The position numbers and the translations under genes are program-made. The notes under the pieces were generated by a model. The model was given only the letters and a program-made list of their open reading frames with translations, ran no database searches and was not told the origin of the DNA. A stretch of DNA of 64,000 nt, taken from contig OZ241980.1 of assembly GCA_965204285.1 (NCBI GenBank), positions 160,235-224,234 of the forward strand. The letters run 5' to 3'. Shown here one piece after another: positions 198 to 53,113 of the stretch. The DNA is from Candidatus Poribacteria bacterium (GTDB taxonomy: Bacteria > Poribacteria > WGA-4E > WGA-3G). The first letter of the stretch is position 1; each line of letters starts with the position of its first letter.

Positions 198-1214
198 ATG
201 AAAGATAGAAAACGTCATTTGCTTGTTTGGACAATTGAAATAGCAAAACGGATAAGTTTTGGACTAATTTTAGTTTTTCTGTGTCTTCCCATCACCTTAG
301 ATGCAGCACCCACGGGGCGTATTGCTTATGCTGTTTCTGGTTTTAACAATAAACTTGGAAGATTAGATTTCAATCTCCACATGACGACCTTTACTGAAAA
401 GGGCGACTTCAAGACAACGCCCTTAAATCAATCTGGAATGTATCCAGCATGGGGACCAGAAGGCGACACGCTCTATTTTATTCAACGTGCCGACACACAA
501 TCGCATATCTTTTCAATTAATATTAACAATCCTAAAAATAAAACACTACTTACAGAGATTAGCGGCACCTATCGATTTTTAGCTGTTTCACCGAATGGAA
601 AGAAACTTGCTTTTAACGGATGGACGCGCGAACAGCAACAACAAGAAAATCAGGTTTGGGTACTTGATATTGAAACAGGTGAAATGGAAGCAGTGACTGC
701 GATACCACACTTTGGGAGGAGTTTCTTTTTTTGGGGAATCTCTTGGGCACCGAACAGTAGACAACTTGCGTTTTCACTTGAAAGACCAGGTGGATTAGAA
801 CAGCTTTACCTATTAGACCTTGAAACAAAAGAGATAGAAATATTAACTGAATTAAATATTGATTTCTATCCTGTTTGGTCGCCTGATGGTACAAAAATTT
901 TGTTCCGTAGGTGGAACAGAGAATTTGACACGATGTCTACAATTGATGTTGAAACGCGAGCCATAAAACCGCTCTTTGATGTTGATAAGCAGACCGGCAT
1001 GTGGACAGATTGGTCATTTGATGGTCAATCGATTATCTTCTCTCGGTGGGGAGCGTTCTATTTACACGATCTTCTTACCGGAAAAACAGAACAATTATTT
1101 GAAGTGGAAGGTAGCATTTTTGTGATTTCCTGGTGGAAGCATGAGGTGCTTGCTGTTGAACCCAAACGGAAATTAACTACAACTTGGGGGGAAGTCAAAC
1201 GTACTTTGAGATAA
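198..1214 (+). CDS. Secreted TolB-like PD40/WD40-like beta-propeller protein with a C-terminal KLTTTWGEVKR tail
   Basis: ATG at 198 is preceded by AAGAGGA. This start is preferred over the ORF-track start at 132, which overlaps the upstream stop. There is a hydrophobic signal/anchor (ISFGLILVFLCLPITLDA). Repeated (W/V)SP(D/N)G-x-x-(L/I)-(A/I/L)F blades are present (SPNGKKLAF, WAPNSRQLAF, WSPDGTKILF, WSFDGQSIIF). Confidence 0.75.
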   Translation: MKDRKRHLLVWTIEIAKRISFGLILVFLCLPITLDAAPTGRIAYAVSGFNNKLGRLDFNLHMTTFTEKGDFKTTPLNQSGMYPAWGPEGDTLYFIQRADTQSHIFSININNPKNKTLLTEISGTYRFLAVSPNGKKLAFNGWTREQQQQENQVWVLDIETGEMEAVTAIPHFGRSFFFWGISWAPNSRQLAFSLERPGGLEQLYLLDLETKEIEILTELNIDFYPVWSPDGTKILFRRWNREFDTMSTIDVETRAIKPLFDVDKQTGMWTDWSFDGQSIIFSRWGAFYLHDLLTGKTEQLFEVEGSIFVISWWKHEVLAVEPKRKLTTTWGEVKRTLR

Positions 1215-1222
1215 CATCTTTA

Positions 1223-1262
1223 TGCGGCACTTCTGAAGCCGCAGGATCTTTATATTTTCTTT
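1223..1262 (+). terminator. Possible intrinsic terminator
   Basis: TGCGGC-N9-GCCGCA hairpin (1223-1243) followed by a T-rich stretch, directly after the stop at 1214. Confidence 0.35.
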
Positions 1263-1398
1263 TCTATTCTTAATTCTATCTCATATTCATTTGACAGAAC
1301 TCCTGATATATTGAAGCAGGGTTTGTAAGTCTCGCAGCTTCACTTTATGAGATAACTCTAATTCAGACGTATCTTAGTAAAAAAAGAAGGTTAGACCA

Positions 1399-8778: not shown

Positions 8779-9411
8779 ATGAAATACCAACGCGGTCCAC
8801 ATTACTCAGGTAAATGTTCGTTCTATATTGTTCCCAATGACCCGCTCTCGGCAGAAGGATCAATACGTCAATGCGTCAATTGTGCTACAGAATTCAACAA
8901 GCGGTTGGGAAGTCTGAAGAATGATTTCTATCAAACAGCTATGTTGACGGTTCTGGAAGCGATGCCGAAGTATGACCCGAACCATCCGAGCGGTGCCAGT
9001 TTGGCTACGTTTATTAAACGACGCGTGTGTAGACGACTTTGGTGGGAACGGAAGAAAGTATTAAAATCTATACCATTTCCGGTTGACGAGCAACCTACGG
9101 ATGATGAAGACTGGACGCCAAATCCGTTAGTTGATGGTTTGAATGCTGAGGCGTGTGCACATGAAACGTTAGAAGACGAAGTGATTCGGCAGCTTGAGGT
9201 GGAACAATTGTGTGAACATTTACCTCAATTTTTGGCAAAACTTACCGAAAAACAACGCCGCGTCCTTGAAATGAAGTATTTTGAGGAACGCAGCGGTGTA
9301 GAGATAGCCAAAGCACTCGGCATCTCTAAAGGTCGGGTGAGCCAAATTCTGAAGACCGCTTTGGAAAAGGTGAAAAAGGCGTACCTCCTTGCATTAGAGA
9401 AAGGTTTTTAA
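8779..9411 (+). CDS. Alternative sigma-70 family sigma factor (regions 2 and 4 only)
   Basis: Region-2-like segment (FYQTAMLTVLEAMPKYDP...ATFIKRRVCRRLWWERKK) and region-4 HTH (LTEKQRRVLEMKYFEERSGVEIAKALGISKGRVSQILKTALEKVKK). The N-terminal 40 aa are unusual and contain Cys. RBS is AAGAGG. Confidence 0.75.
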   Translation: MKYQRGPHYSGKCSFYIVPNDPLSAEGSIRQCVNCATEFNKRLGSLKNDFYQTAMLTVLEAMPKYDPNHPSGASLATFIKRRVCRRLWWERKKVLKSIPFPVDEQPTDDEDWTPNPLVDGLNAEACAHETLEDEVIRQLEVEQLCEHLPQFLAKLTEKQRRVLEMKYFEERSGVEIAKALGISKGRVSQILKTALEKVKKAYLLALEKGF

Positions 9412-9482
9412 TTTTAAAACCAACGTCCTTGACGTTGATTTAAAATACCGACACCTGTATGGGTGTAAAAGGAGATTACAAA

Positions 9483-10298
9483 ATGCTTAAGTTGAAGTTC
9501 AAAACAATCGCGATTGCAGCGATAATCGCTTCTCTATTGTTGGCTGGTTTTGTTGTCAAAAGTGATGCAGCGTCTGTCACGTCGTTTTCTGTCTATTATG
9601 GTGATGATTGGGGAGCGGGTACAACCGTCTCCGTTTCTCTGACAACGGATGAAGATATATACTTTATTGACTGGTATATAGATGATGAATATAGTTTCAC
9701 GAGTACGCACGGTGACACACAAAGTGTGTATGAATACCTGGGCACGTTTGTCGGTGACATAAAAGGCATAAAGTATGATATAAGAGCAGTCGTGTCATTT
9801 GTGGAATCCTCTGATGCTGATGTTTCCGACACGATCAGGGTCTATAAACCGATCGTCAGGTCTAATATCGGCCCGTTGACAGGTGTCTCTGGCTCTGCAT
9901 ACATTTACAGTCAATACTTTACCGGCTCTGCTTTCGGCATGACTGGCTCCACCTATGCATATAACGGAACCAGCCACACGCTCAATGCACTCGGCTGGTT
10001 CCGACTGCAAGAGTGGTCAAGCGAAGACGGCGACTTTATAGATGAAAATCGAGATACAAAAGACCCTGATACCGATTTTGAGCCCGGTGAATCGTATAGT
10101 GTTTCCCCTGATTCTATGGAGGTAGAATTTCCGCAAAACCAACCGCTGAGGGATGATGAAGCGCGTTATTTTAATGCGCATACCCATCTCCAAGTGTATG
10201 GTGAGATTGAGGGTAAGACGCGTGTAGACGACTGGGAAGCCGATACAGAACAGCAGACGGGGACGACTGCTGTGAAGTTTACGTTGGATGATATTTAA
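9483..10298 (+). CDS. Secreted hypothetical protein
   Basis: ATG at 9483 lies 8 nt after AAAGGAG and is preferred over the ORF-track start at 9459. Signal peptide MLKLKFKTIAIAAIIASLLLAGFVVKSDA. No recognisable motif. Confidence 0.6.
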   Translation: MLKLKFKTIAIAAIIASLLLAGFVVKSDAASVTSFSVYYGDDWGAGTTVSVSLTTDEDIYFIDWYIDDEYSFTSTHGDTQSVYEYLGTFVGDIKGIKYDIRAVVSFVESSDADVSDTIRVYKPIVRSNIGPLTGVSGSAYIYSQYFTGSAFGMTGSTYAYNGTSHTLNALGWFRLQEWSSEDGDFIDENRDTKDPDTDFEPGESYSVSPDSMEVEFPQNQPLRDDEARYFNAHTHLQVYGEIEGKTRVDDWEADTEQQTGTTAVKFTLDDI

Positions 10299-10367
10299 GA
10301 GTCGTCAATCCATTATTATGGTGGCAGGGGACACGCGCCCCTGCCACTCTCTAAAAGGAGCAACGTT

Positions 10368-11501
10368 ATGAATGGACGCAAAGTTGTTTTTCTTTCCTTG
10401 CTGCTATTGCTGATCGGGACAGCAGCACACGCCAAAATCGTTTTTAGTTCACAACGAGACGGAGAGGTAGGCAAACCCAGCGGTGGGGTGCGGGGTATCT
10501 ACGTCATGGACGATGACGGCAGCAACCTGACACTTCTTACGGAAAGCAAAGAGTTGTTCCCTGTAGCCCCGAGCTGGTCACCCGATGGTCAACTGATTGT
10601 GTTTAGAGAACGCACACACAGGAACAAAAAATCTGTTCTTTTTCTGATGAATGCGGACGGCAGAAATATTCAGCAACTCACAGAAGAAGATAGGAATACG
10701 ACTATCATCGGCGGTAGATTTTCACCGGATGGAAAATCCATCGTTTTTAGTAGAGACTTTGTTGTGAACAACAAGGTGAAAAGCGCCATCACCATGATGG
10801 ACATTGCGACGCGCGAGATGAAAATCGTCGCAGAGGTAGATGCAGTTACCTGCGATTGGTCCCCCGATGGCAAACAGATTGTGTTTGATAAACCTTCAAC
10901 AGTCGGTGGCGGGGGAAACACGATTTGGATTATGGGGGCAGATGGACACAACCCACGCCCACTTATCCCCGCACCCGTTCCGGAAAAATTCTGGACACAC
11001 CGATTAAAACCGCGCTTCTCGCCAGATGGTCAACAGATTGCGTTTCTGCAAAGAGAGTATACATGGCCAAGGACACTCATCTACCATGCATATCGGTATA
11101 TCATTTGTGATCGCAACGGAGACAATATCCGGCAGCTACGGATACCCAAAGACTTCGACGGGTCCGGCTTAGACTGGATGGATGACGGCAAATCTATCGT
11201 TTTCACTGCGCGGGCTGGCATGCCACTCGACGAACCGATACAGCCAGACTTTGTATGGCCGCCAAGTTATGTCTACAAATATCATATCAAAACAGGCGAG
11301 ATCACCCAGCTCACAAACGATCATGGGTGGGATCAGACAATAGATTGGATTAGTGATGATGCGCTATCTGTTACCCCTAAAGGTAAGATGCAAACGCAAT
11401 GGGGAAAACTAAAAAAGTTTCTCCAGAGTCGCAGTGAAACGTTCAAATCGTTATCACAAAACTTGTCGTTTTTCTTGCGGACAGGGAAAGTTGCAGAGTA
11501 A
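10368..11501 (+). CDS. Secreted TolB-like PD40 beta-propeller protein, tandem paralogue A
   Basis: RBS AAAGGAG; signal peptide LLLLLIGTAAHA; repeated (W/F)SPDG(K/Q)xIVF blades. Contains the KMQTQWGKLKK motif followed by a 28-aa tail. Confidence 0.8.
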   Translation: MNGRKVVFLSLLLLLIGTAAHAKIVFSSQRDGEVGKPSGGVRGIYVMDDDGSNLTLLTESKELFPVAPSWSPDGQLIVFRERTHRNKKSVLFLMNADGRNIQQLTEEDRNTTIIGGRFSPDGKSIVFSRDFVVNNKVKSAITMMDIATREMKIVAEVDAVTCDWSPDGKQIVFDKPSTVGGGGNTIWIMGADGHNPRPLIPAPVPEKFWTHRLKPRFSPDGQQIAFLQREYTWPRTLIYHAYRYIICDRNGDNIRQLRIPKDFDGSGLDWMDDGKSIVFTARAGMPLDEPIQPDFVWPPSYVYKYHIKTGEITQLTNDHGWDQTIDWISDDALSVTPKGKMQTQWGKLKKFLQSRSETFKSLSQNLSFFLRTGKVAE

Positions 11502-11545
11502 GTTCACCATTGGAAGACTGTAACTTGTTTATAAGGAGTATTTCC

Positions 11546-12697
11546 ATGCATCTACAAAAAGTTGGTCTATTTTGTTTGCTGCTATTGCTGATCGGGACAG
11601 CAGCACACGCCAAAATCGTTTTTGGTTCACAACGAGACGGAGAGGTAGGCAAACCCAGCGGTGGCGTGTGGGGTATCTACGTCATGGACGATGACGGCAG
11701 CAACCTGACACTTCTTACAGAAAGCAAAGAGTTGATACCTGCAGCCCCGCGCTGGTCTCCAAACGGCAAACAGATTACCTTTACTAAACGCCCACACAGG
11801 AACAGCGCATTCGCTCTTTATCTCATGAATGCGGACGGCACACATATTCGGCAACTCACAGAAAACGACAAAATATTTACCGTCCTCGGCGCTTCATTTT
11901 CACCGGATGGAAAATCCATCGTTTTTAATAAAGACTTTGTTGTGAACGGCAAGGTGAAAAGAGCCATCAACGTGATGGATATTGCGACGCGCGAGATAAA
12001 AATCATTGAGGTAGATGCTGTCAACTGTGAGTGGTCCCCCGATGGCAAACAGATTGTGTTTGATAAACCTTCAACAGTCGGTGGCGGGGGAAACACGATT
12101 TGGATTATGGGGGCAGATGGACACAACCCACGCCCACTTATCCCCGCACCCGTTCCGGAAAAATTCTGGACACACCGATTAAAACCGCGCTTCTCGCCAG
12201 ATGGTCAACAGATTGCGTTTCTGCAAAGAGAGTATACATGGCCAAGGACACTCATCTACCACGCGCATCGGTATATCATTTGTGATCGCAACGGAGACAA
12301 TATCCGGCAGCTACGAATACCCAAAGACTTCGACGGGTCCGGCTTAGACTGGATGGATGACGGCAAATCTATCGTTTTCACTGCGCGGGCTGGCATGCCA
12401 CTCGACGAACCGATACAGCCAGACTTTGTATGGCCGCCAAGTTATGTCTACAAATATCATATCAAAACAGGCGAGATCACCCAGCTCACAAACGATCATG
12501 GGTGGGATCAGACAATAGATTGGATCAGTGATGATGTGCTTTCTGTTACCCCCAAAGGTAAGATGCAAACACAATGGGGCAAACTAAAAAAGTTTCTCCA
12601 GAGTCGCAGTGAAGCATTTAATGCGTTTTTCGCAAACCCCATCATTTTTCTTGCAGAATCAACGTTGAATGCGCGTGCAGCTGCTGTTAAAAGATAA
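11546..12697 (+). CDS. Secreted TolB-like PD40 beta-propeller protein, tandem paralogue B
   Basis: ATG at 11546 lies 7 nt after AAGGAG and is preferred over 11510. Its 5' signal region and 3' ~590 nt are near-identical to paralogue A. The central part is diverged. Confidence 0.8.
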   Translation: MHLQKVGLFCLLLLLIGTAAHAKIVFGSQRDGEVGKPSGGVWGIYVMDDDGSNLTLLTESKELIPAAPRWSPNGKQITFTKRPHRNSAFALYLMNADGTHIRQLTENDKIFTVLGASFSPDGKSIVFNKDFVVNGKVKRAINVMDIATREIKIIEVDAVNCEWSPDGKQIVFDKPSTVGGGGNTIWIMGADGHNPRPLIPAPVPEKFWTHRLKPRFSPDGQQIAFLQREYTWPRTLIYHAHRYIICDRNGDNIRQLRIPKDFDGSGLDWMDDGKSIVFTARAGMPLDEPIQPDFVWPPSYVYKYHIKTGEITQLTNDHGWDQTIDWISDDVLSVTPKGKMQTQWGKLKKFLQSRSEAFNAFFANPIIFLAESTLNARAAAVKR

Positions 12698-22528: not shown

Positions 22529-22599
22529 CTTGTGCCTCCTCATTATTTGAGTAGGTTAATTGTTTTCGCAATAAGTAGATATGGGATTCAGTTTTCACC

Positions 22600-22850: not shown

Positions 22851-23950
22851 ATGAGAAAACGATTTTGCTTTATTGCACTGTTGCTACTAAGTTTTGTTTT
22901 ATTTCCGGTAAGTTCTAACGCCCTTGACCCATTTACAGCCCGTGTTATCTATTTCCAACCTGCAGACGTTGACGATCCAAATATGCCTGATTTAATACGT
23001 AATCGCATGGAAGATGTCCATGAATTCTATGCCAGTGAAATGGATAGGCATGGTTTTGGACATAAGACTTTTCGTATTGAAAAAGATGTAAACGATAAAA
23101 TTGTTGTTCACACTATCAATGGCAAACATAATGCCGACCACTATGGCAACGTACCGAAAACACATATTGCCATGCAACCTGAACTTCCTAAAGAATTCCT
23201 CAATCACAAGAATGCAAATATCTTTTTCATTGGTGGCATAAAGCACTATAATAATGGCACAGGTGGAATTGCACTTGGTGTTGTTTTTTGGGTGCTGGTA
23301 ATAATGGCGGATATGCACTTATTCCTACAAGAAACATGGAATTTGATGTCGTTGTTCATGAAGTTGGGCATGTATTTGGTTTATCACATAATCAACACAG
23401 AGATAATCCTGATTTTGTGATGGGACGCAATGCTGGAGACGATGGATTCGCACATCATGAGGCACGATGGCTTGACAAGAGTTCATATTTCAACCATAAC
23501 CCGCAGCCAATAGGTGTGATACCAACATTAACGAGAATCCATCCCATAATGCGTGTTCATGATGATATTAAGTTGAATATAGACATTCAAAGTCCAAATG
23601 GTGTGCATCAAGTAGAAATAGCGCGCACTTCAGATCGCGCTGTTGTCGCATGGGATTATATGAATGGACAACCAAAAGTAACAGCCAGATTTGATTTTGA
23701 TAGGTGGGCATTAGAAGCAGATAAAAACCGCATTTGGATCCGTATCATTGACACACAAGGTGCTTTGAGTCAAACGTTAAGAGATATTATTATACCTTCG
23801 CGTCCGCGTCAAAAGAATCCAATAGAAACGCCACCTGACCCCGAACCAAAGCCTGAAGTTGAACCTACTCCCAAACCTGAACCGCCTAAATTTGTGCCGA
23901 CTCGCGGGCATCTCACAACATCGTGGGCAAAAATGAAAAGACGGAGATAA
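22851..23950 (+). pseudogene. Secreted metzincin-type zinc metalloprotease, frameshifted in a T6 run
   Basis: ATG at 22851 lies 7 nt after GGAG. Signal peptide FCFIALLLLSFVLFPVSSNA. The frame breaks at the T6 run 23284-23289; one extra T would join ...GIALGVVF to LGAGNNGGYALIP... The downstream frame carries HEVGHVFGLSH (HExxHxxGxxH) and ends in HLTTSWAKMKRRR. Confidence 0.7.
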
Positions 23951-36698: not shown

Positions 36699-37013
36699 CT
36701 ATAGCAACTTTAAACGATCTTGCCGATCCTCCCAATCTGGTAAATATGCAGACATATACCCCTTAAACAGCTTACCGTGATTCGGTACAAGCAGATGCAC
36801 CAATTCATGCACAATCACAAATTCTGTCAACGTTTCTGGTAGATTAAGCAGCTCCGTGTTGAGTGTCAATCTGCCGTTGGTTGATATAGATGCCCATTTT
36901 CGCCGCATTTCACGTAAATGGATTTCCCGCACCTTAACACCGATGCGGTCTGCCCACTGCCATACTGCACCTTTCAAATCTATAGGACAATCCAATCTAT
37001 TTTGTGAATTCAT
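36699..37013 (-). CDS. Short YgjP/DUF45-type (M48-like) zinc metallopeptidase-fold protein
   Basis: HELVHLLVPNHGKLF motif (HExxH...NH). The ATGA overlap with the hsdR stop suggests translational coupling. At 104 aa it covers only the C-terminal half of typical family members. Confidence 0.7.
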   Translation of the reverse strand: MNSQNRLDCPIDLKGAVWQWADRIGVKVREIHLREMRRKWASISTNGRLTLNTELLNLPETLTEFVIVHELVHLLVPNHGKLFKGYMSAYLPDWEDRQDRLKLL

Positions 37014-39883
37014 ACGCGTTCCAACTTTAGCAATTTGTTTGTTGTTTCGATCAGATCGTCTGCTCCAACAGTGGGGTTTAAGGTTTTATAGAGCCTAATC
37101 CGCAACTCTATTTTTTGATGTGCGTCCCATTGATAGTCGGGAAATTTCTCAAATTCTTTATCAATAGCTTGTGCTTGTCCTGGCGTGAAATTTTCTATAA
37201 CGTTTTTGAGTTCTCTATAAATCGCAAAGGAGTTATTATCCAAATTCACCTCATTACGTTCTCTGGCAGCACTTGAATATTCCTCAGCTAACTTCCTGAA
37301 CTCAGCTAAAATTTCTTCCGTTTTTGACTGACGATCTTCATAAGCCTCTATAGCTGCTTCTGCGCGTTCACCAATAGATCTTAAAAACGGTTGGGCTGTG
37401 CCTTCATCTACTACGGTCTGACGTAGTACTTTCCGTAAATTCAGCACCTTAACCGTATCAGATGAATCGCTCTGCTCTATTTCCTTCAAAGTGGTTTCGT
37501 TCAACTCATAAACAGCGTTGGGTAACTCAAATAGATTGCCTTCCGTATGTGTCTTTAAGAGTTCCTGCGTTTTGGTGGTTAACTCCTTATCTACGTAAAT
37601 TTGCTCGGTATAAGCGTTACGAATTAACCCGTATAGCGATGCAAGTGCTTGATAATCCTCTATAAATTCATGTAAGAAAGCATCAGGAGAAAGAATATTA
37701 TAGAAATTTTGCACCTGTTTGAAGAACGTAAAAAATGCTTCCCGAACATCCTTGTCCTCAAAACGTTCTATTGCTCGATCTTTCGCTTTGTCGTCCGAAC
37801 CTGTAGTAAGCGGCAGATACTCCTGTGCATCTTCACACATCAACTTCGCAAAAGCCGCTTTGAGTACGTCAATGTTCTGAATTATACTCTTTACTTCGTC
37901 AGAATCGAAGGCGAGTGCTTTTTCCAATTTCTCAAAGATGCCGACAAAATCTAATACAAACCCGGCAGGTTTTACCAATCCGTCCTCATCTTCATAAGGT
38001 CGATTGACACGGGCAATTGCTTGTAACAACACATGGTCACGCATCGGTTTATCAAGGTACATGCAGTAAAGGATTGGTGCGTCAAACCCAGTCAACAATT
38101 TTTGGGTTACAATCAGGATTTTCGGTTGTTCGTTTTTGTCAATGAATTTCTTACGAATTTCTTTCTCTTGCTCTGGTGTGTGGTGGAACGATTTCATCAA
38201 CTCGGTGTCGTTATTATTGTGAGAATAGACGACCTCCGAATATTCTGGTGGTAGGTAATTATCCAGTGCCTGTTTATATAATGCACACGCCTCGCGGTCT
38301 ACACCGACCAGAAACGCCTTGAATCCCATCGGCTCAATGCGTGTTTTGAAGTCTTCGGCAATAAATTTGGCAATTCCCTCTATTCTGTCGAGGGATTTCA
38401 TCATCACTTTTAGCTCAACAGCGCGGTCAAGAATAGCGTTGAGTTCATCAGGATCACTAATGCCTTCAGTTTCTGCAAGGTTTAGGAATTCCCGATTTAG
38501 TACTTCTGGATCAACCCGCAAACCGGTTGGGGCAAGCGCGTAATGCAACCGCACAGTCGTACCATCTTCAATGGATTCTGCAATAGCATATTTATCAAGA
38601 TATCCCTGTTCATCGTCTTTGCCGAATACTTTGAAAGTCCCTTCACCTTTAGAAAGTTTATCAATTGGTGTTCCAGTAAAACCGATATATGTTGCATTGG
38701 GAAGGGCAGCCATGAGGTAATTTCCAAAGTCCCCGCCTGTCGTTCTGTGTGCTTCGTCAATCAGGACGATAACGTTTTTACCTGTGTTAAGGTTTGCGGG
38801 TTTCTTGTCAAACTTGTGAATCATGGACACGATTAAACCACGGTGATCGGATGCTAAAATTCTCTCTAAGTCCTCCTTGCTCTGTGCAACTTCAAGCGTG
38901 GTGATGCCGTAAGCGGTGATATTTCTAAAGAGTTGGCTTTCCAGTTCATTGCGGTCAACAATCATTAGCACGGTAGGCTTTTCAGACTGTTCTCCACCGC
39001 GCAGGAGTCGTGAGGCAATTGTTATCATGGTGAGAGTTTTACCGCTACCTTGCGTATGCCAAACAAGCCCGCGCGTTTTGTTCGGATCGTTGACGCGATC
39101 AATAACTTTTTCTACAGCACGCGTTTGGTGTTGACGCAGCACAACTTTGGTGAGTTGGTCGTCTCGGTCCTGGAATATGATTAACCGCTGCAGCACTTGC
39201 AGAAAACGTTCCCGGTCGAAAAAGGTTTTTACTTTCTGCTCATAGTTTTTACGTTCATCTGTTTTCCAGTTAAACAGATTTTTGCGATTGGTGTTCCACG
39301 TTACACTATAGAAAAAACCGTGTAGATGCGTGACAGCGAAAAGTTGTGCAGTGGTGAACATTTCAGGCGTTTCGCGATGGTAACGACGGATCTGATCAAC
39401 ACCGAGTGCCAAACCGTCCCGCTTGTTAGTATCTTTCGTCTCTACAACTGCTACCGGTATCCCGTTAATCAAGAATACAACATCGGCGCGGTTGGTGTGG
39501 ACAACACCTTTCTGTTCCCATTCATCAGTAACATGAAACAAGTTATTGTCGGGGTTCTCAAAATCTATCAGGGTAACGTTGCGTTGGCGGTTTTCACTGT
39601 GAACAAAAGTTGACTCTTTACCGCGCATCCAAGATAGTGCTGTCTGGTTATCTTCAAGTGTTGATTTGAGCAAACCGAGCTTCCGCATAACGTCCGCACA
39701 ATTGGATTCGTCTACGACTCCTTTGTTGAGTTTCAAGAGTTGCGCTTGCAGGACATCAGTAAAATAGCGCGCGGCGGTATCACCACCACGCATGCGCATG
39801 GCATCTGATGGCGAAATTCGCTGCCACCCGATTTCATTGGCGTATTCGAGCATTGGCTCTTGGACTGCGGAACGTTCAGACAT
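37010..39883 (-). CDS. hsdR: Type I restriction enzyme R subunit
   Basis: N-terminal PD-(D/E)xK nuclease region (ADVVFLINGIPVAVVETK). SF2 helicase motifs are present (HTQGSGKTLTM, VLIDEAHR, FTGTP, LIVTQKLLTGFDAP). Length is 957 aa. Confidence 0.92.
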   Translation of the reverse strand: MSERSAVQEPMLEYANEIGWQRISPSDAMRMRGGDTAARYFTDVLQAQLLKLNKGVVDESNCADVMRKLGLLKSTLEDNQTALSWMRGKESTFVHSENRQRNVTLIDFENPDNNLFHVTDEWEQKGVVHTNRADVVFLINGIPVAVVETKDTNKRDGLALGVDQIRRYHRETPEMFTTAQLFAVTHLHGFFYSVTWNTNRKNLFNWKTDERKNYEQKVKTFFDRERFLQVLQRLIIFQDRDDQLTKVVLRQHQTRAVEKVIDRVNDPNKTRGLVWHTQGSGKTLTMITIASRLLRGGEQSEKPTVLMIVDRNELESQLFRNITAYGITTLEVAQSKEDLERILASDHRGLIVSMIHKFDKKPANLNTGKNVIVLIDEAHRTTGGDFGNYLMAALPNATYIGFTGTPIDKLSKGEGTFKVFGKDDEQGYLDKYAIAESIEDGTTVRLHYALAPTGLRVDPEVLNREFLNLAETEGISDPDELNAILDRAVELKVMMKSLDRIEGIAKFIAEDFKTRIEPMGFKAFLVGVDREACALYKQALDNYLPPEYSEVVYSHNNNDTELMKSFHHTPEQEKEIRKKFIDKNEQPKILIVTQKLLTGFDAPILYCMYLDKPMRDHVLLQAIARVNRPYEDEDGLVKPAGFVLDFVGIFEKLEKALAFDSDEVKSIIQNIDVLKAAFAKLMCEDAQEYLPLTTGSDDKAKDRAIERFEDKDVREAFFTFFKQVQNFYNILSPDAFLHEFIEDYQALASLYGLIRNAYTEQIYVDKELTTKTQELLKTHTEGNLFELPNAVYELNETTLKEIEQSDSSDTVKVLNLRKVLRQTVVDEGTAQPFLRSIGERAEAAIEAYEDRQSKTEEILAEFRKLAEEYSSAARERNEVNLDNNSFAIYRELKNVIENFTPGQAQAIDKEFEKFPDYQWDAHQKIELRIRLYKTLNPTVGADDLIETTNKLLKLERV

Positions 39884-39903
39884 GACTGTATTAAGTTGAA
39901 GTA

Positions 39904-41298
39904 TTATCTCTTACTGAGACTAAGCAATCGGAACTTAGTTTTGGTTTCATCTTTGGTTTCACCTATTTCAACAAATCCTTGTATTTCTGCAATATATGGC
40001 TTACTTACTGAAGCGGTCTTTACGATTTCAGTCTCATAGGCTTCCTCTATGATTTTTCCTTTAAAAAAGTCTTTTTCATACAAATTATCATCAGACGTTT
40101 CTATCTCAAATGATTTGGATCTGAGAGAGATACCAACTAATGTGCCCTGGATTCTGATTGTTTCTAATGTTTCTTCTTGAATTTTCTCAAGAATATCAAT
40201 AGCCTTTTTCATTTGCGATTGTGAAAGTTGGGCTGTTCCACCACGGTCTGGATGTGGTGATGTCCAAGTGAATTTGGTATCTATTACGGATTCACTAAGT
40301 GGTTTGAGAAACTCAGTGTAATCCTTTGCAACCCTTGGTCCAAATTCCTCCATGAGTGGTTTCAGTTGGTCTTGGTTACATCCAGAATTAAGGATTCTCA
40401 GAAATTCATTTATTGCATTTCCAAGATCAGAATCCAATAAACTGCCATATTCTGTTGATGCAAGTTGAATTTCAAATGAACCTGCACCGACTTCCAACAT
40501 TGAGATACCAAAGGGGTTTCGGATGTCTTCAAGTATCTTCTTATATGTTGAATTAACACATTTCGCACCGATTCTGTTAATTACTTTATGTAATCCGGTT
40601 AGAAAATTTCCTAATGAGTCGATCGGTGCTTCTGTTCTGGAAACTCCGGCATAGTTGAGAGCACATTTAAGAAGGTCACGAGCAATAGACGATGCTATTT
40701 CTTGTGGACTGCGGAGTGGTGGAAGTGTCTCGGTTTTTAGCCCAAGACGTTCACCATGCAGCGGGAGCATTTCCTCGGCGATTTGATTGGGCTGAATGAC
40801 TTCTAAAGATGGTTTTGTATGATCGACGTGTGGAATTCTTACCTGGAACAGTACGCCATTTTCAGCATCGGTGAACGCATTACGAAGGTCTATTCCACCA
40901 GATCGGATGTAATTTAAACGATCTTTAGAGATTCCAACACGAAGCCATGTTTTATCTTCATCGTTTTCACCAACGGTAACAAGGTAAAGATGACCTGCAG
41001 AGTCTTTACATGAAAAGAGAGCAGGATAGTCGTTATGTACATAGTTTTCGACGACTTTGTGTATGCCAAGATATGGAATATCGTATTGAATAGAGAGGTT
41101 TAAAGACGGTTGCGGAACATCGTCACCGTCTTCTTGTAATCCTTCAATATGAAATTCGATAGCTTCATCAATTAACGTTTGGACTTCTTCCAGTGTCTCA
41201 CCTACAGCTATGCATCCAGGGAGATCCGGCACATAAGCACCATAACTGCTATCGCCTTTCTCATAAATTACAACATAATCCATTCGTTTATCCCTCAT
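39904..41298 (-). CDS. HicB-like N-terminal domain fused to an uncharacterised domain of about 390 aa
   Basis: Residues 6-65 (MDYVVIYEKGDSSYGAYVPDLPGCIAVGETLEEVQTLIDEAIEFHIEGLQEDGDDVPQPS) match the HicB/UPF0150 fold signature. I recognise no motif in the remainder. The ATGA overlap with the hicA stop suggests coupling. The ORF ends 20 nt before hsdR. Confidence 0.75.
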   Translation of the reverse strand: MRDKRMDYVVIYEKGDSSYGAYVPDLPGCIAVGETLEEVQTLIDEAIEFHIEGLQEDGDDVPQPSLNLSIQYDIPYLGIHKVVENYVHNDYPALFSCKDSAGHLYLVTVGENDEDKTWLRVGISKDRLNYIRSGGIDLRNAFTDAENGVLFQVRIPHVDHTKPSLEVIQPNQIAEEMLPLHGERLGLKTETLPPLRSPQEIASSIARDLLKCALNYAGVSRTEAPIDSLGNFLTGLHKVINRIGAKCVNSTYKKILEDIRNPFGISMLEVGAGSFEIQLASTEYGSLLDSDLGNAINEFLRILNSGCNQDQLKPLMEEFGPRVAKDYTEFLKPLSESVIDTKFTWTSPHPDRGGTAQLSQSQMKKAIDILEKIQEETLETIRIQGTLVGISLRSKSFEIETSDDNLYEKDFFKGKIIEEAYETEIVKTASVSKPYIAEIQGFVEIGETKDETKTKFRLLSLSKR

Positions 41299-41483
41299 TG
41301 CTCAATATCTGCTTGTTTCAGAACGCTTTTGAGCGTACCTGTCGGGACATCTTTGCCCATTTTACCTGAAACTGTCACTTTCCCTTTTTTTGTTGGATGT
41401 TTAAAATAGCGATGACTGCCTCGTGACTTTGTATAATACCACCCATCATTTTCAATCAGTTTTATCAGTTCTCTAACCTTCAT
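41295..41483 (-). CDS. hicA: HicA-family toxin (mRNA interferase)
   Basis: MKVRELIKLIENDGWYYTKSRGSHRYFKHPTKKGKVTVSGKMGKDVPTGTLKSVLKQA is a typical HicA/YcfA sequence (GSH..F.HP...V.V..H...). Length is 62 aa. Confidence 0.88.
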   Translation of the reverse strand: MKVRELIKLIENDGWYYTKSRGSHRYFKHPTKKGKVTVSGKMGKDVPTGTLKSVLKQADIEQ

Positions 41484-41654
41484 AATCCAGTCTTCCTACA
41501 TGCTGCGGGAAAAAGCACGTAACATTCTCTAAAATATGTTATCAAGTTATTATGATTTGTCTCGTTTTGTGTTTCTCCGCACCAGCAGCAATAAGGTTAG
41601 TAGCAAGGACGCAGGGCACTGTCAGATTGCTTACCACCAAAACTGGATGTGTAT

Positions 41655-41684
41655 AGTATAGCATATTAGTAAAAAAGTTATCAA
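41655..41684 (-). promoter_or_regulatory. Candidate promoter for the hicA-hicB fusion-hsdR-DUF45 unit
   Basis: The minus strand reads TTGATA (41679-41684), an 18-nt spacer, then TATACT (41655-41660). The GTTATCAAGTT box recurs at 41541-41551. Confidence 0.4.
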
Positions 41685-41720
41685 GTTGTTAGTTGTCACT
41701 TAAACAAAATTCAGAATTTC

Positions 41721-42950
41721 TCATACGTTCATCTCAGCATCAATCAACGGCACGGCAGACCGCTGCCCTGTCATCAGTTCTTCAAGCATGGCGTGGAATA
41801 GTTCATCAATATGTTCAACTTCTTTTTCAAGGGCAGCAGTTTTTTCGTCAATTGTTCTAAAAATGTTGGCAATGGCACGTTGTTCGGGAAGTGGTGGAAG
41901 GGGTAAAACAAGATTGGTAAGTATAGGAATATTTACACCTCCCTTGAGTCTACCCCCTTTACTTTGTTCTATTTGTCGCCAATAGTTATTTGAACGAAAG
42001 TATTGCGCCAAAAAAACTGGTGACAGGTTGTCCTTCGTTTGCACACGAATTAGATATGACGCAAAAATTGCTTCTGGGCAATCGTCAATAATGTAAGCCT
42101 TTCCAGTCGTTGCACCAATTCGCGCAATTACTATATCACCAGTTTTTAACAAATACTTCTCCTTAGTTTTTTCACCACAAACGCAATAAGGAACCTTTTG
42201 CCAATTTACCGTATCATTTTGAATATCCGTAATTCTCAAAAATTTAGGACCTACAGCAGAATCATTGGCACTTTCAGTGTAACCGTAACCTGGTTTATAA
42301 CAGTAGTCGCCTAATCTCACAACTTCCCAACTTTCAGGCATCTCGCCGATTTCGGTTTGCTTGCGGGGTTCGCCTTTTGTGCCGTGTGAAAAGAGGTAAT
42401 CCATCAATGCTGCTTTGCGTTCACGCTCTAATACGATTTCGCGTTGTCGGGTGAATTTTGCTTCTTGGATTGTTTGTAAAGTGTGGGCGATGGCGCGTTG
42501 TTCGGGTAGCGGGGGAAGTGCTAAGGGCACCTGTTTCATCCTGCCCTGGTTCAGTTTTCCGCGAGTTGTTCCACTGATGAATGGTTTAATATTAAGATAA
42601 TTTAGTTGACACGTCAAAAAATAATTATGCGATAAGCCTTGTTTAGCCTGTAAAACATGGGCATGATTATTTACCCAAAATTTTCCACTCATCAAATAAG
42701 CTGAGTCTTCAAAAGAACCCCAGTACCCACCATCTTCAGCTAATAAAACATATTCACCATCAAATAGATAATTATTCACATGATCTACTACTCCATTTGC
42801 TCCGCAGTAAGGATATTCTCCTTGCATCTGTTGCCTTTGCGCCCCATTGATTGGGATTCTCTTTTTATTAAAGACATTTACTGCTTTTTCAAGTGGCATC
42901 ACTTTCCAATGTTCTGGGAAATTTATAACGTTCATTGCGTCCCTTTCCAT
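41721..42950 (-). CDS. hsdS: Type I restriction-modification specificity subunit
   Basis: Two target-recognition domains are separated by conserved helices, and LPPLPEQRAIA occurs twice. Length is 409 aa. An alternative start lies at 42935. Confidence 0.9.
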   Translation of the reverse strand: MERDAMNVINFPEHWKVMPLEKAVNVFNKKRIPINGAQRQQMQGEYPYCGANGVVDHVNNYLFDGEYVLLAEDGGYWGSFEDSAYLMSGKFWVNNHAHVLQAKQGLSHNYFLTCQLNYLNIKPFISGTTRGKLNQGRMKQVPLALPPLPEQRAIAHTLQTIQEAKFTRQREIVLERERKAALMDYLFSHGTKGEPRKQTEIGEMPESWEVVRLGDYCYKPGYGYTESANDSAVGPKFLRITDIQNDTVNWQKVPYCVCGEKTKEKYLLKTGDIVIARIGATTGKAYIIDDCPEAIFASYLIRVQTKDNLSPVFLAQYFRSNNYWRQIEQSKGGRLKGGVNIPILTNLVLPLPPLPEQRAIANIFRTIDEKTAALEKEVEHIDELFHAMLEELMTGQRSAVPLIDAEMNV

Positions 42951-42984
42951 TCAATCTAAGCGGACGGCACACGGCGTGTGCCTG

Positions 42985-44622
42985 CTACTTTGCATTCAAT
43001 CCAAGCTGCATCAAAACATCTTCCAATGCGTTATCCGCTTTTTCTCGGGCGATACTCGCTTCTGTTAAGTCTGCTAATATTTCATTCACTGCGCGGTGTA
43101 CAACTGCGTCACCGACATCTACAAACTGTGAAGGATTTAGATTGTAATCGGTTTTTTGTGCATCTTCAAGTGTGATAACGTTACTGAATTTCTCACGCGA
43201 TTCCCATGCTTCATATACTTCTGTTGCTGCTGTGATTCCTTCATCTGTTAGAACGTTTTTCGGTTTTCTTTTCTCAAAATACTGTGAGAGATTGATAAGT
43301 AGGAACTTTGCTTTGCGTTCCGCGGGTTTGTTGCGGTTTAGCAGCAATATAATGCCCGGTGCTGTTGTGTTATAAAATAGGTTTTCGGGTAGCAGGACCA
43401 CACCTTCAATTAGGTCTTTCTCAACAAACTTTTTGCGGATATCGCGTTCCCGATTGGTCTGTTTAGCACCGGAGCCTCGAGAGATTGCGCCGGTATCCAG
43501 CACAATTGCGGCGCGCCCGTTATCTTTCAGAGAGGCGAGCATGTGCTGCACCCATGCCCAATCTGCTGAGGAACTTGGTGGGATGCCGTCCGAAAATCGA
43601 TTCCAATTATCATTTTCATAAAAGTCATCGTCATATTCTTTCTGATTCCACATCGGATTTGCCAGCACATAGTCAAAACGTTGGAGTTTTGAATTGTCAG
43701 CCACGAAACGTGGATTGCGGAAGGTGTCGCCTATCTGAATATCTGCGCTGATAAAGTCGTGCAGAAAGGCGTTCATTTTTGCCATTGCGTAGGTTGTTGG
43801 CGTTAATTCCTGTCCAAATATATTTGGTGCTTGGCTTTTTTCTTGATCTGAATGCGTCTGCTCAAATTGTAATCTTCCTTTGATAAGCAAACCGCCAGAG
43901 CCACACGCAGGATCGTATATCGTGGTGTAGGGTTCAGGGTTAATAAGACGTGCCATTAACGCGCCGACCTCTTTCGGTGTGTAGAACTCACCCGCGCTCT
44001 GTCCTTGTCCTTCGGCAAACTTCCGTAACAGATATTCATAAGCACGTCCAAGGATATCTGGCTCCGCATCTTCAAGTCCAAGTTTATGTTGACTTATCAC
44101 CTCAATCAGTTTTTCGAGGCGATCATCGTCAATCAGTCGTTGTCCGCTCTGGCGTTCATTGAAATCTTCTACATCCAGTACACCTTGTAACCGAGGGTTA
44201 GCACGCGCAACCTCACGCATTGCATCGGTAACAAACTGTCCTAAGTTGCCGTCAGCGGGGTGGTTACGAAGTGCCTCCCAGCTATATTGCTGCGGAATAT
44301 AAAAACGCACAATCGGGTCGTCACGATCCTTTTCAAGTGCGTCCGCATGGTCTGCTTCAGTAATCTTTCTGGCAATTTCCTCATTTCCGAATTCTTCAAC
44401 GTGTTTTGCAAATTCGTCATCAAACACATCGGAGAGGCGTTTATAGAAGATTAGGGGTAAGATAAAATCCTTGAATTTTGGTGCGTCGGTTGCGCCGCGT
44501 ATTGCACAAGCAGCAGCCCATAGCCATGTTTCAAGTTTGGGTAAATCTAATTGTTCTTCGTTCTCGGCGAGAAGGGGAAGCGTGGTTTGGTCTGTATCTG
44601 TTGGGGACTTCTGTTTTGGCAA
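42985..44622 (-). CDS. hsdM: Type I restriction-modification N6-adenine DNA methyltransferase subunit
   Basis: HsdM N-terminal domain (LWAAACAIRG, FILPLIFYKRLSD). AdoMet motif I is IYDPACGSGGLL. Motif IV reads LANPMWN rather than the usual NPP(F/Y/W). Confidence 0.92.
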   Translation of the reverse strand: MPKQKSPTDTDQTTLPLLAENEEQLDLPKLETWLWAAACAIRGATDAPKFKDFILPLIFYKRLSDVFDDEFAKHVEEFGNEEIARKITEADHADALEKDRDDPIVRFYIPQQYSWEALRNHPADGNLGQFVTDAMREVARANPRLQGVLDVEDFNERQSGQRLIDDDRLEKLIEVISQHKLGLEDAEPDILGRAYEYLLRKFAEGQGQSAGEFYTPKEVGALMARLINPEPYTTIYDPACGSGGLLIKGRLQFEQTHSDQEKSQAPNIFGQELTPTTYAMAKMNAFLHDFISADIQIGDTFRNPRFVADNSKLQRFDYVLANPMWNQKEYDDDFYENDNWNRFSDGIPPSSSADWAWVQHMLASLKDNGRAAIVLDTGAISRGSGAKQTNRERDIRKKFVEKDLIEGVVLLPENLFYNTTAPGIILLLNRNKPAERKAKFLLINLSQYFEKRKPKNVLTDEGITAATEVYEAWESREKFSNVITLEDAQKTDYNLNPSQFVDVGDAVVHRAVNEILADLTEASIAREKADNALEDVLMQLGLNAK

Positions 44623-44948: not shown

Positions 44949-45964
44949 AACGTGAGTTTGATAAATAGTATTAGAAATTACATATCATTGGCAACTGATA
45001 GTCATTTTCTTTAAGTTCTTTATGTTTAAGTGAAGGTTTTTTCTGTAGACAGGTATAAGCGATCAAGGCAGCAACTGCATTCACTTGAAAGTTAACAGGA
45101 CTTCTATGGCGTGTGTGTTGTATCTCTGTCTGACTTTTAAGTTCTTTATTCACCGACTCAATAAGCATGCGTTTTTTTAGAAGTGCTGCATCAGCATCAG
45201 ACAAAGGTTCAGGTTTCATATTCTTACGCACCTTGTAAATGAGCGTCACACCGTCTTCTTGGAGTCTCTCCCGCAGATTTTTGTTGATATACCCTTTATC
45301 GGCAAATAGTTTGCCAAAGAGCCCTTGACACAACTGTGGCACGGTTCGCCTGTCATCTACGTTTCCCGCTGTCACCATAGCGGACAAGAGTTCACCTTGG
45401 TCGTTGATGACGAGATGTAGTTTAAACCCATAGAACCATCCCATAGAGGTTTTAGAACGCTCCGCATAATCAATGAAGACGCGATGCGCTGAAATCCGGC
45501 GATTGTGGCAGACCGGCAGCGGTGTTGAGTCTATGAAGGAAATGCCACGACACTTACCGAAACGGGTGTTGAGAAAAATAGACAACAAAACCAATACCTC
45601 TTGTGAGAGCTGCACAAAACGACTATAGCTGACAAGGTTCGGAAACGCCCAACGCAGATGGAAACAGACATAATCCTGATAATACGCTTTAAAGTTTTTA
45701 TACTGCTTCTGATGAAAAAGCACAAGTATCGTCATGACTTCGCTCGGATGAAGGCGCCGGGGTCTGCCCCGTGTGTTGTTTGTTCCGGGTATGTCCGGCA
45801 ACTGGTATTGTGCTTGATATTGTTCATACGTAAGAAAAAAGTCGTCAATTTCACAGAAAAGTGTTATGATATCCATCAGAGAACTCCTTTGTAAGTATAA
45901 TGGTATACTTCATCATAACAAAGGGGTTCTCTATTTACCAGTTTTTAATTATCAAACTCACGTT
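44949..45964 (-). mobile_element. IS982-family insertion sequence (1,016 bp)
   Basis: 16-bp perfect terminal inverted repeats: AACGTGAGTTTGATAA (44949-44964) and TTATCAAACTCACGTT (45949-45964). They are flanked by a 7-bp direct repeat AAAATCT (44942-44948 and 45965-45971). Confidence 0.85.
44971..45876 (-). CDS. IS982-family DDE transposase
   Basis: MDIITLFCEIDDFF...SEVMTILVLFHQKQYKNFKAYY...FIDSTPLPVCHNRR...GFKLHLVINDQGEL...ADKGYI is the typical IS982 pattern. Length is 301 aa. Confidence 0.88.
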   Translation of the reverse strand: MDIITLFCEIDDFFLTYEQYQAQYQLPDIPGTNNTRGRPRRLHPSEVMTILVLFHQKQYKNFKAYYQDYVCFHLRWAFPNLVSYSRFVQLSQEVLVLLSIFLNTRFGKCRGISFIDSTPLPVCHNRRISAHRVFIDYAERSKTSMGWFYGFKLHLVINDQGELLSAMVTAGNVDDRRTVPQLCQGLFGKLFADKGYINKNLRERLQEDGVTLIYKVRKNMKPEPLSDADAALLKKRMLIESVNKELKSQTEIQHTRHRSPVNFQVNAVAALIAYTCLQKKPSLKHKELKENDYQLPMICNF

Positions 45965-51406: not shown

Positions 51407-51465
51407 CCCCTTTCAATCCCATCAATTAGCGATTGACTAAGCATTAGGTTCTTATAGGTAAAAAA

Positions 51466-52251
51466 ATGATATTCCAGCACCTGATCACAGGTTTTCTTTT
51501 ATTATCATTGGTTACGTTGGGTGCCCAAGCACTGCCGCCAACATCCCCCGCGGGAGGGAAAATGCTGCACTTAGATAAAACTCACGATTATGTTGGCACT
51601 GGCGAGGCGTGGCTTCCTGGTGAACAGTTTGAACAGTTGACTGTTGAGGCATGGATTTACTTTGAAGAACCTCCAGGACCATCTAAATATTGGTCAGTCA
51701 TTGGTCAGGAAGGAAGATTCAATTTGGTTGTGACAGGTGGGGGTTCCTTAGGGTCTTGGGCGGCTCATCAGGACGCAGAAGGAAACGCTTCACTGACTGT
51801 TAACTCTTTACCGTTGCCTATAGGGGAATGGGTGCATGTCGTTGGAATGTACTATGCTAAAGCGGGCATGGGATTTAACGGCAAAGGCGGCATTTGGTGT
51901 TGTCCGGGTGGACATTTCGTCAAATCGTATAAGCCCTTACGTATTGGTGGCATCATTCCTAAAAATCAAGAAAAACCCCGTTTCAGTGGAGAAAATGTGA
52001 AATTTCAAGGGTATATTGATGAAGTGCGAATTTCGAATATTCTGCGATATCCGGATAGGAATTGGAAAATTCCGCAAAGAAAATTCAGTGAAGATGAACA
52101 TACTATTTCACTATGGCATTTTGATGAAGAATCTTTTTCCCGTCGTTATATGGATAAATCTGGAAACGGTTACGATCTCTGGAGAGGTGATGTGTTGCCA
52201 ATCTCTGCAGAGAAGAAACTTAGCGTTCTGTGGGGAGAGCTTAAGCGTTGA
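51466..52251 (+). CDS. Secreted LamG/concanavalin-A-like lectin-fold protein, tandem paralogue 1, with a C-terminal KLSVLWGELKR tail
   Basis: Signal peptide. LamG_3-like landmarks are present (LHLDKTHDYV, LTVEAWIYFE, WVHVVGMY, GYIDEVRISN). Confidence 0.75.
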   Translation: MIFQHLITGFLLLSLVTLGAQALPPTSPAGGKMLHLDKTHDYVGTGEAWLPGEQFEQLTVEAWIYFEEPPGPSKYWSVIGQEGRFNLVVTGGGSLGSWAAHQDAEGNASLTVNSLPLPIGEWVHVVGMYYAKAGMGFNGKGGIWCCPGGHFVKSYKPLRIGGIIPKNQEKPRFSGENVKFQGYIDEVRISNILRYPDRNWKIPQRKFSEDEHTISLWHFDEESFSRRYMDKSGNGYDLWRGDVLPISAEKKLSVLWGELKR

Positions 52252-52303
52252 ATTTTATAGTAGATTTTAGAATTAATTAAACACTGTAAACAAGCGAGGT
52301 CTC

Positions 52304-53113
52304 GTGCCTCAAGGTAAAAAGATGGTATACCGATTACTCATTACAAGTTTTCTTTTGGTAATATGTATTTTGCTAAATGCTCAAGCAGTGCCACCACCAT
52401 CACCTCAAGAAGGGAGGATGTTGCGGCTGGATGAAAAACACGATTATGTTGGAACCGTCGACTCGTGGTTTCCTGATGAACAGTTTGAGCAATTAACTAT
52501 TGAAGCCTGGGTCTACTTTGAAGAACCTCCAGGACCATTGAAATTTTGGTCAATTTTTGGTCAGGAAGGACGATTCAATTTAGTGATTGCTGGCAGTAAG
52601 GGTGTTTTAGGTTCATGGGCAGCTCACAATGGCCGAGGACAAGACGCTTCAATAACTGTTCAAATAAATCCGCTTCCCACAAAGCAATGGGTACACGTCG
52701 TTGGGATGTATTATGCCAAAGCAGGCATGGGAATTAACGGCAAAGGCGGCATTTGGTGCTGTCCGGGTGGACATCTCGTTAACTCAAATAAACCCTTTCG
52801 CATTGGCGGAATTGTTGTCCCGCAAGATCAACAAGCACCTCGTTTCGTTGGAGAAAATGTGAAATTTAGAGGATATATTGATGAAGTGCGAATTTCGAAT
52901 ATTCTGCGATATCCGGATAGGAATTGGAAAATTCCAGAAAGAAAATTCAGGGTAGATGAAAATACCATTTCACTTTGGCATTTTGATGAAGCACCTTGGT
53001 CAGGTCATTTCAAAGATGAATCTGGAAACGGTTATGACCTTTGGAGAGGTGATGCTATGTCCGTTGAAGCACAAGGGAAATTAACAACTAAATGGGGAGA
53101 ACTGAAGCGATAA
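52304..53113 (+). CDS. Secreted LamG/concanavalin-A-like lectin-fold protein, tandem paralogue 2, with a C-terminal KLTTKWGELKR tail
   Basis: It has the same landmarks as paralogue 1. GTG start; an alternative ATG lies at 52322. Confidence 0.75.
   Translation: MPQGKKMVYRLLITSFLLVICILLNAQAVPPPSPQEGRMLRLDEKHDYVGTVDSWFPDEQFEQLTIEAWVYFEEPPGPLKFWSIFGQEGRFNLVIAGSKGVLGSWAAHNGRGQDASITVQINPLPTKQWVHVVGMYYAKAGMGINGKGGIWCCPGGHLVNSNKPFRIGGIVVPQDQQAPRFVGENVKFRGYIDEVRISNILRYPDRNWKIPERKFRVDENTISLWHFDEAPWSGHFKDESGNGYDLWRGDAMSVEAQGKLTTKWGELKR

Follow-up and report, generated by a model that had tools for sequence, protein, structure and literature searches.

A short conserved tail at the C-termini of exported Poribacterial proteins of unrelated folds, a candidate sorting or surface-retention tag

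Does a short motif that recurs at the C-termini of exported proteins with different folds represent a signal read by the cell envelope, and is it confined to the locus where it was noticed? The question is raised by a stretch of 64,000 nucleotides (the window) on contig OZ241980.1 of a Candidatus Poribacteria bacterium, in which an earlier note had described an 11-residue C-terminal motif on six 'otherwise unrelated' secreted proteins: three PD40/TolB-like beta-propellers (TolB1–3), a metzincin-type metalloprotease and two Laminin_G_3 proteins (LamG1 and LamG2). The six peptides are encoded where they had been placed and read exactly as quoted, and all six proteins show a signal-peptide-like N-terminus. 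When the whole window was translated in six frames, the pattern [KH][LM]x[TV]xW[GA]x[LVM]K[KR] gave these six matches only, all on the forward strand, each lying 0–34 residues from a stop codon in an open reading frame (ORF) of at least 219 aa. About 0.0002 matches would be expected by chance from the amino-acid composition, and codon shuffles (n=300) produced 0.003 on average and never more than 1. With six tails in 64 kb, the window is a hot spot for the element. Parts of the original description had to be amended. The folds are unrelated, but the proteins are not six independent cases: TolB2 and TolB3 arose by a recent duplication and have the same tail, and LamG1 shares 69% identity with LamG2, so that the independent instances number four, in three fold classes. 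Similarly, the 11-residue core is real, but the conserved unit is longer and reaches 8 residues further upstream ([LM]-[SA]-V-x-[PA]-x-[GK]-K).

The motif occurs throughout the phylum Poribacteria and is not peculiar to the window. A degenerate DNA pattern back-translated from K-L-[TA]-T-T-W-G-x-φ-K was scanned against 185,579 species, each represented by one genome, and retrieved at least 119 loci. Among the matches listed, 109 are titled Poribacteria, seven are untitled metagenome-assembled genomes (MAGs), one is a sponge MAG labelled Pseudomonadota, one a short contig labelled Deltaproteobacteria, and one an internal chance match in Synechococcus. At least one of the untitled MAGs (L069) is clearly Poribacterial, since the genes next to its tagged gene share 72–97% identity with those of named Poribacteria loci. 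The closest of the 114 homologues of LamG2 are from named Candidatus Poribacteria, and nearly all 114 end in AVEAQGKL[TA]TTWGxLK[RQK]. When 1.84 billion representative proteins were searched exhaustively with the profile, at least 73 matched at E <= 0.001, a floor rather than a census because the 18-position profile reaches only ~35–43 bits; the named members of ten clusters from this search are all Poribacteria. When a 45-aa tail alignment was used in a word-indexed protein search, only 2 candidates were returned. With 16 tail variants joined into a 320-aa concatemer there were 1,436 candidates, but just 23 of them at E <= 10, because a match of 18 residues is too short to be significant among 5.8 billion sequences. 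The tail is confined to Poribacteria; the only possible exceptions are a few unclassified MAGs. More than 200 ORFs with the tail were found in ~2.9 Mb of Poribacterial DNA, and the density of ~7 per Mb away from hot spots suggests, as a rough estimate, tens of tagged proteins per genome. Divergent tails were counted with regular expressions. Several PD40 and Kelch proteins with divergent tails (…RHTLMWGWLKQLGAGGHNQ and …ELSTWGWLKATGR), plus one canonical tail, are also encoded by a MAG of 65% GC content ('uncultured bacterium SRP200020_co5_420', L104), which may belong to a sister or deep-branching lineage whose tag is a variant.

The placement of the motif is constrained as well. In nearly all of the >200 ORFs, no more than 15 residues separate it from the stop codon. 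Among the matches listed in the degenerate scan, 142 of 143 have a stop codon 1–12 residues away. When 120 loci and the window were translated in six frames, 176 of the 179 matches at >=7 bits to a local hidden Markov model (HMM), built from the tails of the scanned loci, fell within 15 aa of the stop; the tail of TolB1 scores 33.3 bits in this model. In the exhaustive search the motif is at most 21 aa from the C-terminus in 71 of 73 proteins, the other two being spurious.

The tail is ~20 residues long and has the consensus φ-L-[AP]-V-[ED]-[PA]-x-[GD]-K-L-[AT]-T-T-W-G-x-[LIV]-K-x(2–4)-COOH, typically AVEPxGKLTTTWGxLK. With the tryptophan numbered 0, the profile reads φ(−13), L(−12), A/P(−11), V(−10, 95%), E/D(−9), P/A(−8), x, G/D(−6), K(−5), L(−4), A/T(−3), T, T, W, G(+1), x, L/I/V(+3), K(+4), where positions −13 to −6 were free of any constraint from the search pattern. 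Two lysines and the single tryptophan are nearly invariant. In an alignment of 65 LamG sequences, chosen without regard to the motif, every sequence has W and K(+4), and conservation reaches 90% or more at V, K(−5), L, T and G. The final lysine is followed by 2–4 aa in 150 of 175 tails, and the last residue is R in 35%, Q in 16% and K in 10% of the tails (R, Q, K or N together in 70%). Codon usage at the motif differs among the copies in the window, as had been remarked, and across 142 copies all the synonymous codons for each position of the motif occur close to their background frequencies. It is therefore the peptide that is under selection and not the DNA or RNA, in agreement with the earlier proposal that the motif is conserved at the protein level and is not a DNA repeat. 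One protein from the exhaustive search (P0139, 101 aa) starts with three tandem ARGKLTT[VA]WG[KE][LM]TI copies; this odd repeat of the tail core could be artefactual or read out of frame.

The carriers of the tail are diverse in fold, and most look like exported proteins. BLAST comparison of 160 tagged ORFs from the first 0.99 Mb yielded 19 sequence clusters. Pfam assigns different domains to them, which bears out the claim of unrelated folds: Laminin_G_3 (by far the largest cluster), PD40, Kelch, F5_F8_type_C, 3keto-disac_hyd (DUF1080), DUF3108_like, a metzincin with Ank, and an adhesin-like protein of 1,682 aa that has He_PIG and LTD domains. No Pfam match was obtained for several of the tagged clusters. 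Most carriers are single-domain proteins of 215–400 aa, and the tail often follows a variable acidic or Pro-rich linker (Pro/Glu-rich in the metzincin of the window). Association with signal peptides, as predicted, is strong: by a crude hydrophobicity and AxA rule, applied to full-length tagged ORFs, 136 of 147 (93%) have signal-peptide-like N-termini, compared with 173 of 617 untagged neighbours (28%; Fisher p = 2e-49). Only one of the 147 shows a lipobox-like site. The tail therefore marks a subset of the secretome exported by Sec and processed by signal peptidase I.

Could the tail be an ordinary structural element, such as a strand of a shared domain, a nucleotide repeat or a terminator-linked element, or a mere coincidence? 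A weak likeness to the beta-hairpin of PD40 blades (AVSPNGKKLAF), with a 5-bit local match inside TolB1, would favour this. However, no model in Pfam or NCBIfam (release 20) covers the tail, which follows LamG, Kelch, discoidin, metzincin and Ig-like domains alike. AlphaFold2 predicts a confident LamG sandwich for LamG2 (65-sequence alignment), on which the tail (residues 245–263; pLDDT, the per-residue confidence score, 34–50) is not packed. TolB1 is predicted as a confident propeller with the tail (residues 315–338) at pLDDT <50, a weaker result as the PD40 alignment held only 5 sequences; the tail is packed on neither fold. The free variation of synonymous sites and the excess of six observed over 2e-4 expected matches also argue against such an element, and this explanation is effectively refuted. 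Thus, both outcomes that the earlier note had named as fatal to the motif, a chance frequency at C-termini and a strand of one shared, already described domain, were looked for and neither was found. No description of the tail was found in the searchable literature, where matches to the motif string were irrelevant. A conserved, unstructured, terminal segment that is independent of the host fold looks like a peptide read by another protein.

Table 1. Tail-bearing proteins and the SprA-like protein encoded in the window (nucleotide positions within the window).
Feature	Position	Strand	Remarks
TolB1, PD40/TolB-like beta-propeller	198..1214	+	signal peptide; tail VLAVEPKRKLTTTWGEVKRTLR at 1146–1211
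TolB2, PD40 propeller paralogue	10368..11501	+	divergent tail ALSVTPKGKMQTQWGKLKK at 11361–11417, then atypical 27-aa extension
TolB3, PD40 propeller paralogue	11546..12697	+	tail VLSVTPKGKMQTQWGKLKK at 12536–12592, then 34-aa extension
SprA/Sov homologue, distant (outer-membrane translocon in type IX secretion), 2,160 aa	13256..19738	-	TIGR04189, E = 8.5e-41
Metzincin-type metalloprotease, frameshift-split	22851..23950	+	signal peptide; divergent tail KFVPTRGHLTTSWAKMKRRR at 23888–23947
LamG1 (Laminin_G_3)	51466..52251	+	signal peptide; tail VLPISAEKKLSVLWGELKR at 52192–52248
LamG2 (Laminin_G_3)	52322..53113	+	signal peptide; tail AMSVEAQGKLTTKWGELKR at 53054–53110

In sum, the tail is conserved across unrelated folds, selected as a peptide, locked to the C-terminus, linked to signal peptides and predicted to lie outside the folded domain. 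By its anatomy and by analogy with other C-terminal signals, we take it, with confidence a little above even, to be a phylum-restricted C-terminal sorting or surface-retention tag that is recognised in trans on a subset of Sec-exported proteins. According to this proposal, tagged proteins would be exported by Sec and cleaved by signal peptidase I, whereupon the flexible tail would be read in trans by a dedicated envelope component, which would either pass the protein across the outer membrane or hold it at the cell surface. The tail would thus give a final location to modules that otherwise have no anchor, the carriers being mostly small single-domain binding modules (LamG, PD40/Kelch propellers, discoidin, DUF1080). 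It is possible, if doubtful, that the tail is more specifically the address label of an unrecognised outer-membrane export or surface-anchoring pathway peculiar to Poribacteria. Such a pathway might feed a miniature unfolded signal to a highly divergent SprA-like translocon that can do without the canonical fold of C-terminal domains (CTDs), or the signal might be read by another, entirely novel receptor.

The same anatomy might suit a docking or assembly peptide, dockerin-like or acting as a donor strand, that plugs the modules into a surface scaffold or into each other, either non-covalently or through a lysine isopeptide, so as to build a modular surface layer. The carriers are indeed mostly single binding domains of ~215–400 aa with no other anchor, the tail is disordered alone yet highly conserved, as one would expect of a peptide that becomes ordered when bound, and its near-invariant residues include the two lysines and the tryptophan. 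Candidate scaffolds would be the large multi-domain proteins that bear type IX secretion system (T9SS) CTDs and are encoded in the same clusters. However, no receptor domain was identified, and a docking peptide has no obvious need for a constrained distance to the C-terminus. We consider docking rather unlikely as a separate explanation; it overlaps with the tag proposed above, of which surface retention is one of two options, and present tools cannot separate the two.

Proximity to the C-terminus is what a processing or stability signal would call for, namely a degron or a cleavable pro-peptide recognised by a periplasmic C-terminal protease of the Ctp/Prc or HtrA-TPR type and controlling the level or activation of the carriers. 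The window does encode a trypsin-like protease fused to TPR repeats (ORF 61331–63529), which the earlier note had listed among possible partners, and TPR domains bind C-terminal peptides elsewhere (PEX5–PTS1, Hop–EEVD). Tail-specific proteases prefer apolar C-termini, whereas the last residues of the tail are variable and mostly polar or basic. Moreover, an 18-residue motif on at least 19 families across a phylum exceeds what a degron usually needs, and the tail showed no genomic linkage to a protease. No specific evidence for the protease-TPR protein as a partner was obtained, and we regard a role in processing as very unlikely.

The only candidate partner with some support is the giant protein that had been described as SprA-sized. 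It is a distant homologue of SprA, detected solely by the NCBIfam profile, with a score (139 bits) under the curated cut-off of 200; a phmmer search against PDB sequences returned nothing. The protein is conserved, with 56–96% identity, in all 80 Poribacteria loci listed, and tagged genes lie within 3 kb of its gene in 42 of them. The density of tagged ORFs is 111 per Mb within 3 kb of the SprA-like gene and 7.4 per Mb at 3–10 kb, a 15-fold difference. In ~30–39 of the 80 genomes listed, a tagged LamG gene is located directly upstream on the same strand. This is the arrangement of the largest clade, where the LamG tail reads …KQFQAVEAxxKLxVTWGxLK and a second tagged LamG gene is often divergent; in the clade of the window, the gene is instead adjoined by the tagged PD40 pair in convergent orientation. 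The adjacency is suggestive, but it amounts to only two or three independent arrangements. A link of the tail to the SprA-like translocon, as a third, miniature T9SS-type signal beside CTDs of ~90 residues, is on the whole unlikely. Kamke et al. 2014 (PMC3909097) reported TIGR04183-like domains in Poribacteria from single-cell genomics and did not find Por machinery, a statement that is qualified by the SprA homologue found here.

The second candidate, an operon with two Omp85 genes, could not be upheld, as LamG2 orthologues in two other genomes are not located beside Omp85 genes. In the window this block (53140-59780, reverse strand) encodes a DUF4159 protein, an Omp85 protein of 799 aa with a weak sub-threshold match to DUF4252, a PA14 protein and a second Omp85 protein of 777 aa, and is convergent on the LamG pair. 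The neighbourhoods of 120 tag-seeded loci were mined for a sorting enzyme; the recurrent neighbours belong to abundant families (TPR, CRTAC1-like, Gfo/Idh/MocA oxidoreductases, ECF sigma factors) and reflect the synteny of a few orthologous loci. Genes for extracytoplasmic function (ECF) sigma factors recur in 9 of these loci. A predicted lipoprotein of ~130 aa is encoded directly upstream of LamG2-type tagged genes in L201 (9606-10004 and 11160-11549, with a 4-nt overlap with the LamG gene), L103 and L076. It is tied to this one LamG subfamily only and is absent beside LamG1 and LamG2 of the window.

Several points weigh against a sorting or surface-retention tag. The proposed function is derived from anatomy and analogy, with secretion, cleavage and binding all inferred, and no convincingly co-occurring recognising component emerged from the 120 neighbourhoods. 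Low pLDDT is weak evidence, particularly for PD40 with its small alignment. The few independent arrangements limit the weight of the SprA adjacency, and type-A CTDs, to which the tail HMM shows no similarity, are already present as the expected cargo signal of SprA. Furthermore, strict C-terminal placement is not universal: in TolB2 and TolB3 the motif precedes an atypical extension of 27–34 residues instead of the usual 2–4, and extensions of this type (FLQSRSExFKxLSQN…; 25–40 aa) are kept in the orthologues of the close relatives L121, L124, L129 and L154, while that of L123 ends in a canonical short tail.

Other features of the window concern the surroundings of the tagged genes. TolB2 and TolB3 belong to a co-directional block (8779-12697, forward strand) together with genes for an ECF sigma factor and a 279-aa protein with no family match, possibly an anti-sigma factor. 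The frame of the metzincin gene is broken in a run of six thymines (23285–23290) and restored by one added T, and the frameshift could be a homopolymer sequencing error. The gene lies on a ~5-kb insertion (20049–25300) beside an IS1595 transposase, along with three ORFs (524, 215 and 121 aa) that have no family match. The close relative L124 (93% identical) lacks this insertion, and there the SprA-like gene directly adjoins the OTCase/PALP genes. A type I restriction-modification system (HsdR, HsdS, HsdM), with a HicB-like/DUF6575 protein between the R and S genes, is encoded at 37010-44622 on the reverse strand and is adjoined by an IS4-type transposase (44971–45876).

C-terminal signals have repeatedly led to their machines: LPXTG to sortase, PEP-CTERM to exosortase and the CTD to the T9SS. 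On the basis of sequence only, the tail delimits a coherent group of exported proteins in a phylum without cultured members. Poribacteria are ecologically dominant sponge symbionts, and their 'eukaryote-like' binding domains, which many of the tagged proteins carry, are thought to mediate host contact. The 18-position profile provides a simple handle for predicting the surface and secreted proteome of Poribacteria, and the search for cognate machinery becomes a concrete problem of co-occurrence and structure prediction. Poribacteria do encode a putative SprA-like translocon, which qualifies the earlier report of no Por secretion genes. If the tail is indeed a sorting tag, the known repertoire would gain a short tag with neither membrane anchor nor domain fold, and a 20-residue linear peptide without a transmembrane segment would suffice for the sorting of dozens of Sec-exported proteins in each genome.

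How does the tail compare with C-terminal signals already described? As the earlier note had supposed, it matches none of those tested. Tripartite sortase-type signals (LPXTG, PEP-CTERM, GlyGly-CTERM, MYXO-CTERM) are likewise short C-terminal signatures on unrelated exported proteins of one lineage, the 'V-E-P' at −10 to −8 recalls the PEP signature, and the end of the tail is often basic. However, tripartite signals need a transmembrane helix of ~20 residues after the signature, followed by a basic cluster, whereas only 15 polar residues (x-G-K-L-T-T-T-W-G-x-L-K-x-x-R) and no transmembrane segment follow 'VEP' in the tail; no NCBIfam sorting-domain or CTERM model matched, even at E <= 1. Type I secretion substrates have no Sec signal peptide, in contrast to most of the tagged ORFs. 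The beta-signal of outer-membrane proteins and the DegS-activating C-terminus are also C-terminal motifs of Sec-exported envelope proteins read by envelope machinery, but the beta-signal is a terminal aromatic residue on a beta-barrel, while F, Y or W is the last residue in 22 of 175 tails (13%) and the hosts are soluble lectin-like or propeller proteins.

T9SS CTDs (type A, TIGR04183/PF18962; type B, TIGR04131) share several features with the tail. They are C-terminal signals on a subset of the secretome with Sec signal peptides, their extreme C-terminal residues are basic or polar, and an SprA homologue adjoined by tagged genes is present here. CTDs differ from the tail in being Ig-like beta-sandwiches of 70–100 residues, and TIGR04183, PF18962, PF13860 and TIGR04131 matched neither the six window proteins nor 18 representatives of the tagged clusters. 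Canonical type-A CTDs share genomes with the tail, mostly on far larger proteins (e.g. …VYWDGRNQIGEPVSSGVYLYTINAGDFSATRKMLIRK), and the tail HMM scores <0 bits on these genuine Poribacterial domains. Type-A CTDs (NYPNPFNPETW…GVYLYTINAGDFSATRKMLIRK) are found, for instance, on large cadherin/LRR, WD40 and subtilase proteins in L201 (137-4357 and 13516-15801) and L203 (1-570). As CTD proteins occur in the same gene clusters as small TTWG-tailed proteins, two classes of C-terminal tag coexist. A resemblance by eye between G-D-F-S-A-T-R-K of the last CTD hairpin and G-K-L-T-T-T-W-G had suggested that the tail is a remnant of a type-A CTD, an idea left unsupported by the negative HMM scores. Nor was a LamG homologue of 223 aa (P0107) accepted as evidence of interchangeable tags: its LamG N-terminal half is fused to the last ~40 residues of a CTD that is near-identical to the CTD of the WD40 gene adjoining the LamG genes in L201, and the protein probably arose by a fusing deletion or as a chimera of assembly.

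Short receptor-read peptides, such as the S-domain of secretins bound by pilotins, PTS1 read by the TPR domain of PEX5, and the cargo-loading peptides of encapsulins (e.g. LTVGSLRR), share several features with the tail: they are ~10–20 residues long, lie at or near the C-terminus, are disordered alone, follow a flexible linker and are independent of the fold of the cargo. The likeness to encapsulin peptides (L-T-x-G-x-L-K/R) is superficial. Encapsulin and PTS1 cargo is cytoplasmic and has no signal peptides, whereas tagged proteins mostly have them, together with domains of extracytoplasmic type; no encapsulin or microcompartment shell gene was seen in the neighbourhoods examined, a genome-wide search not having been made. 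Secretin S-domains, unlike the tail, are confined to one protein family, and no pilotin-like partner was found. In its logic the tail resembles these short C-terminal peptides that are read by a receptor, while being a member of none of their families.

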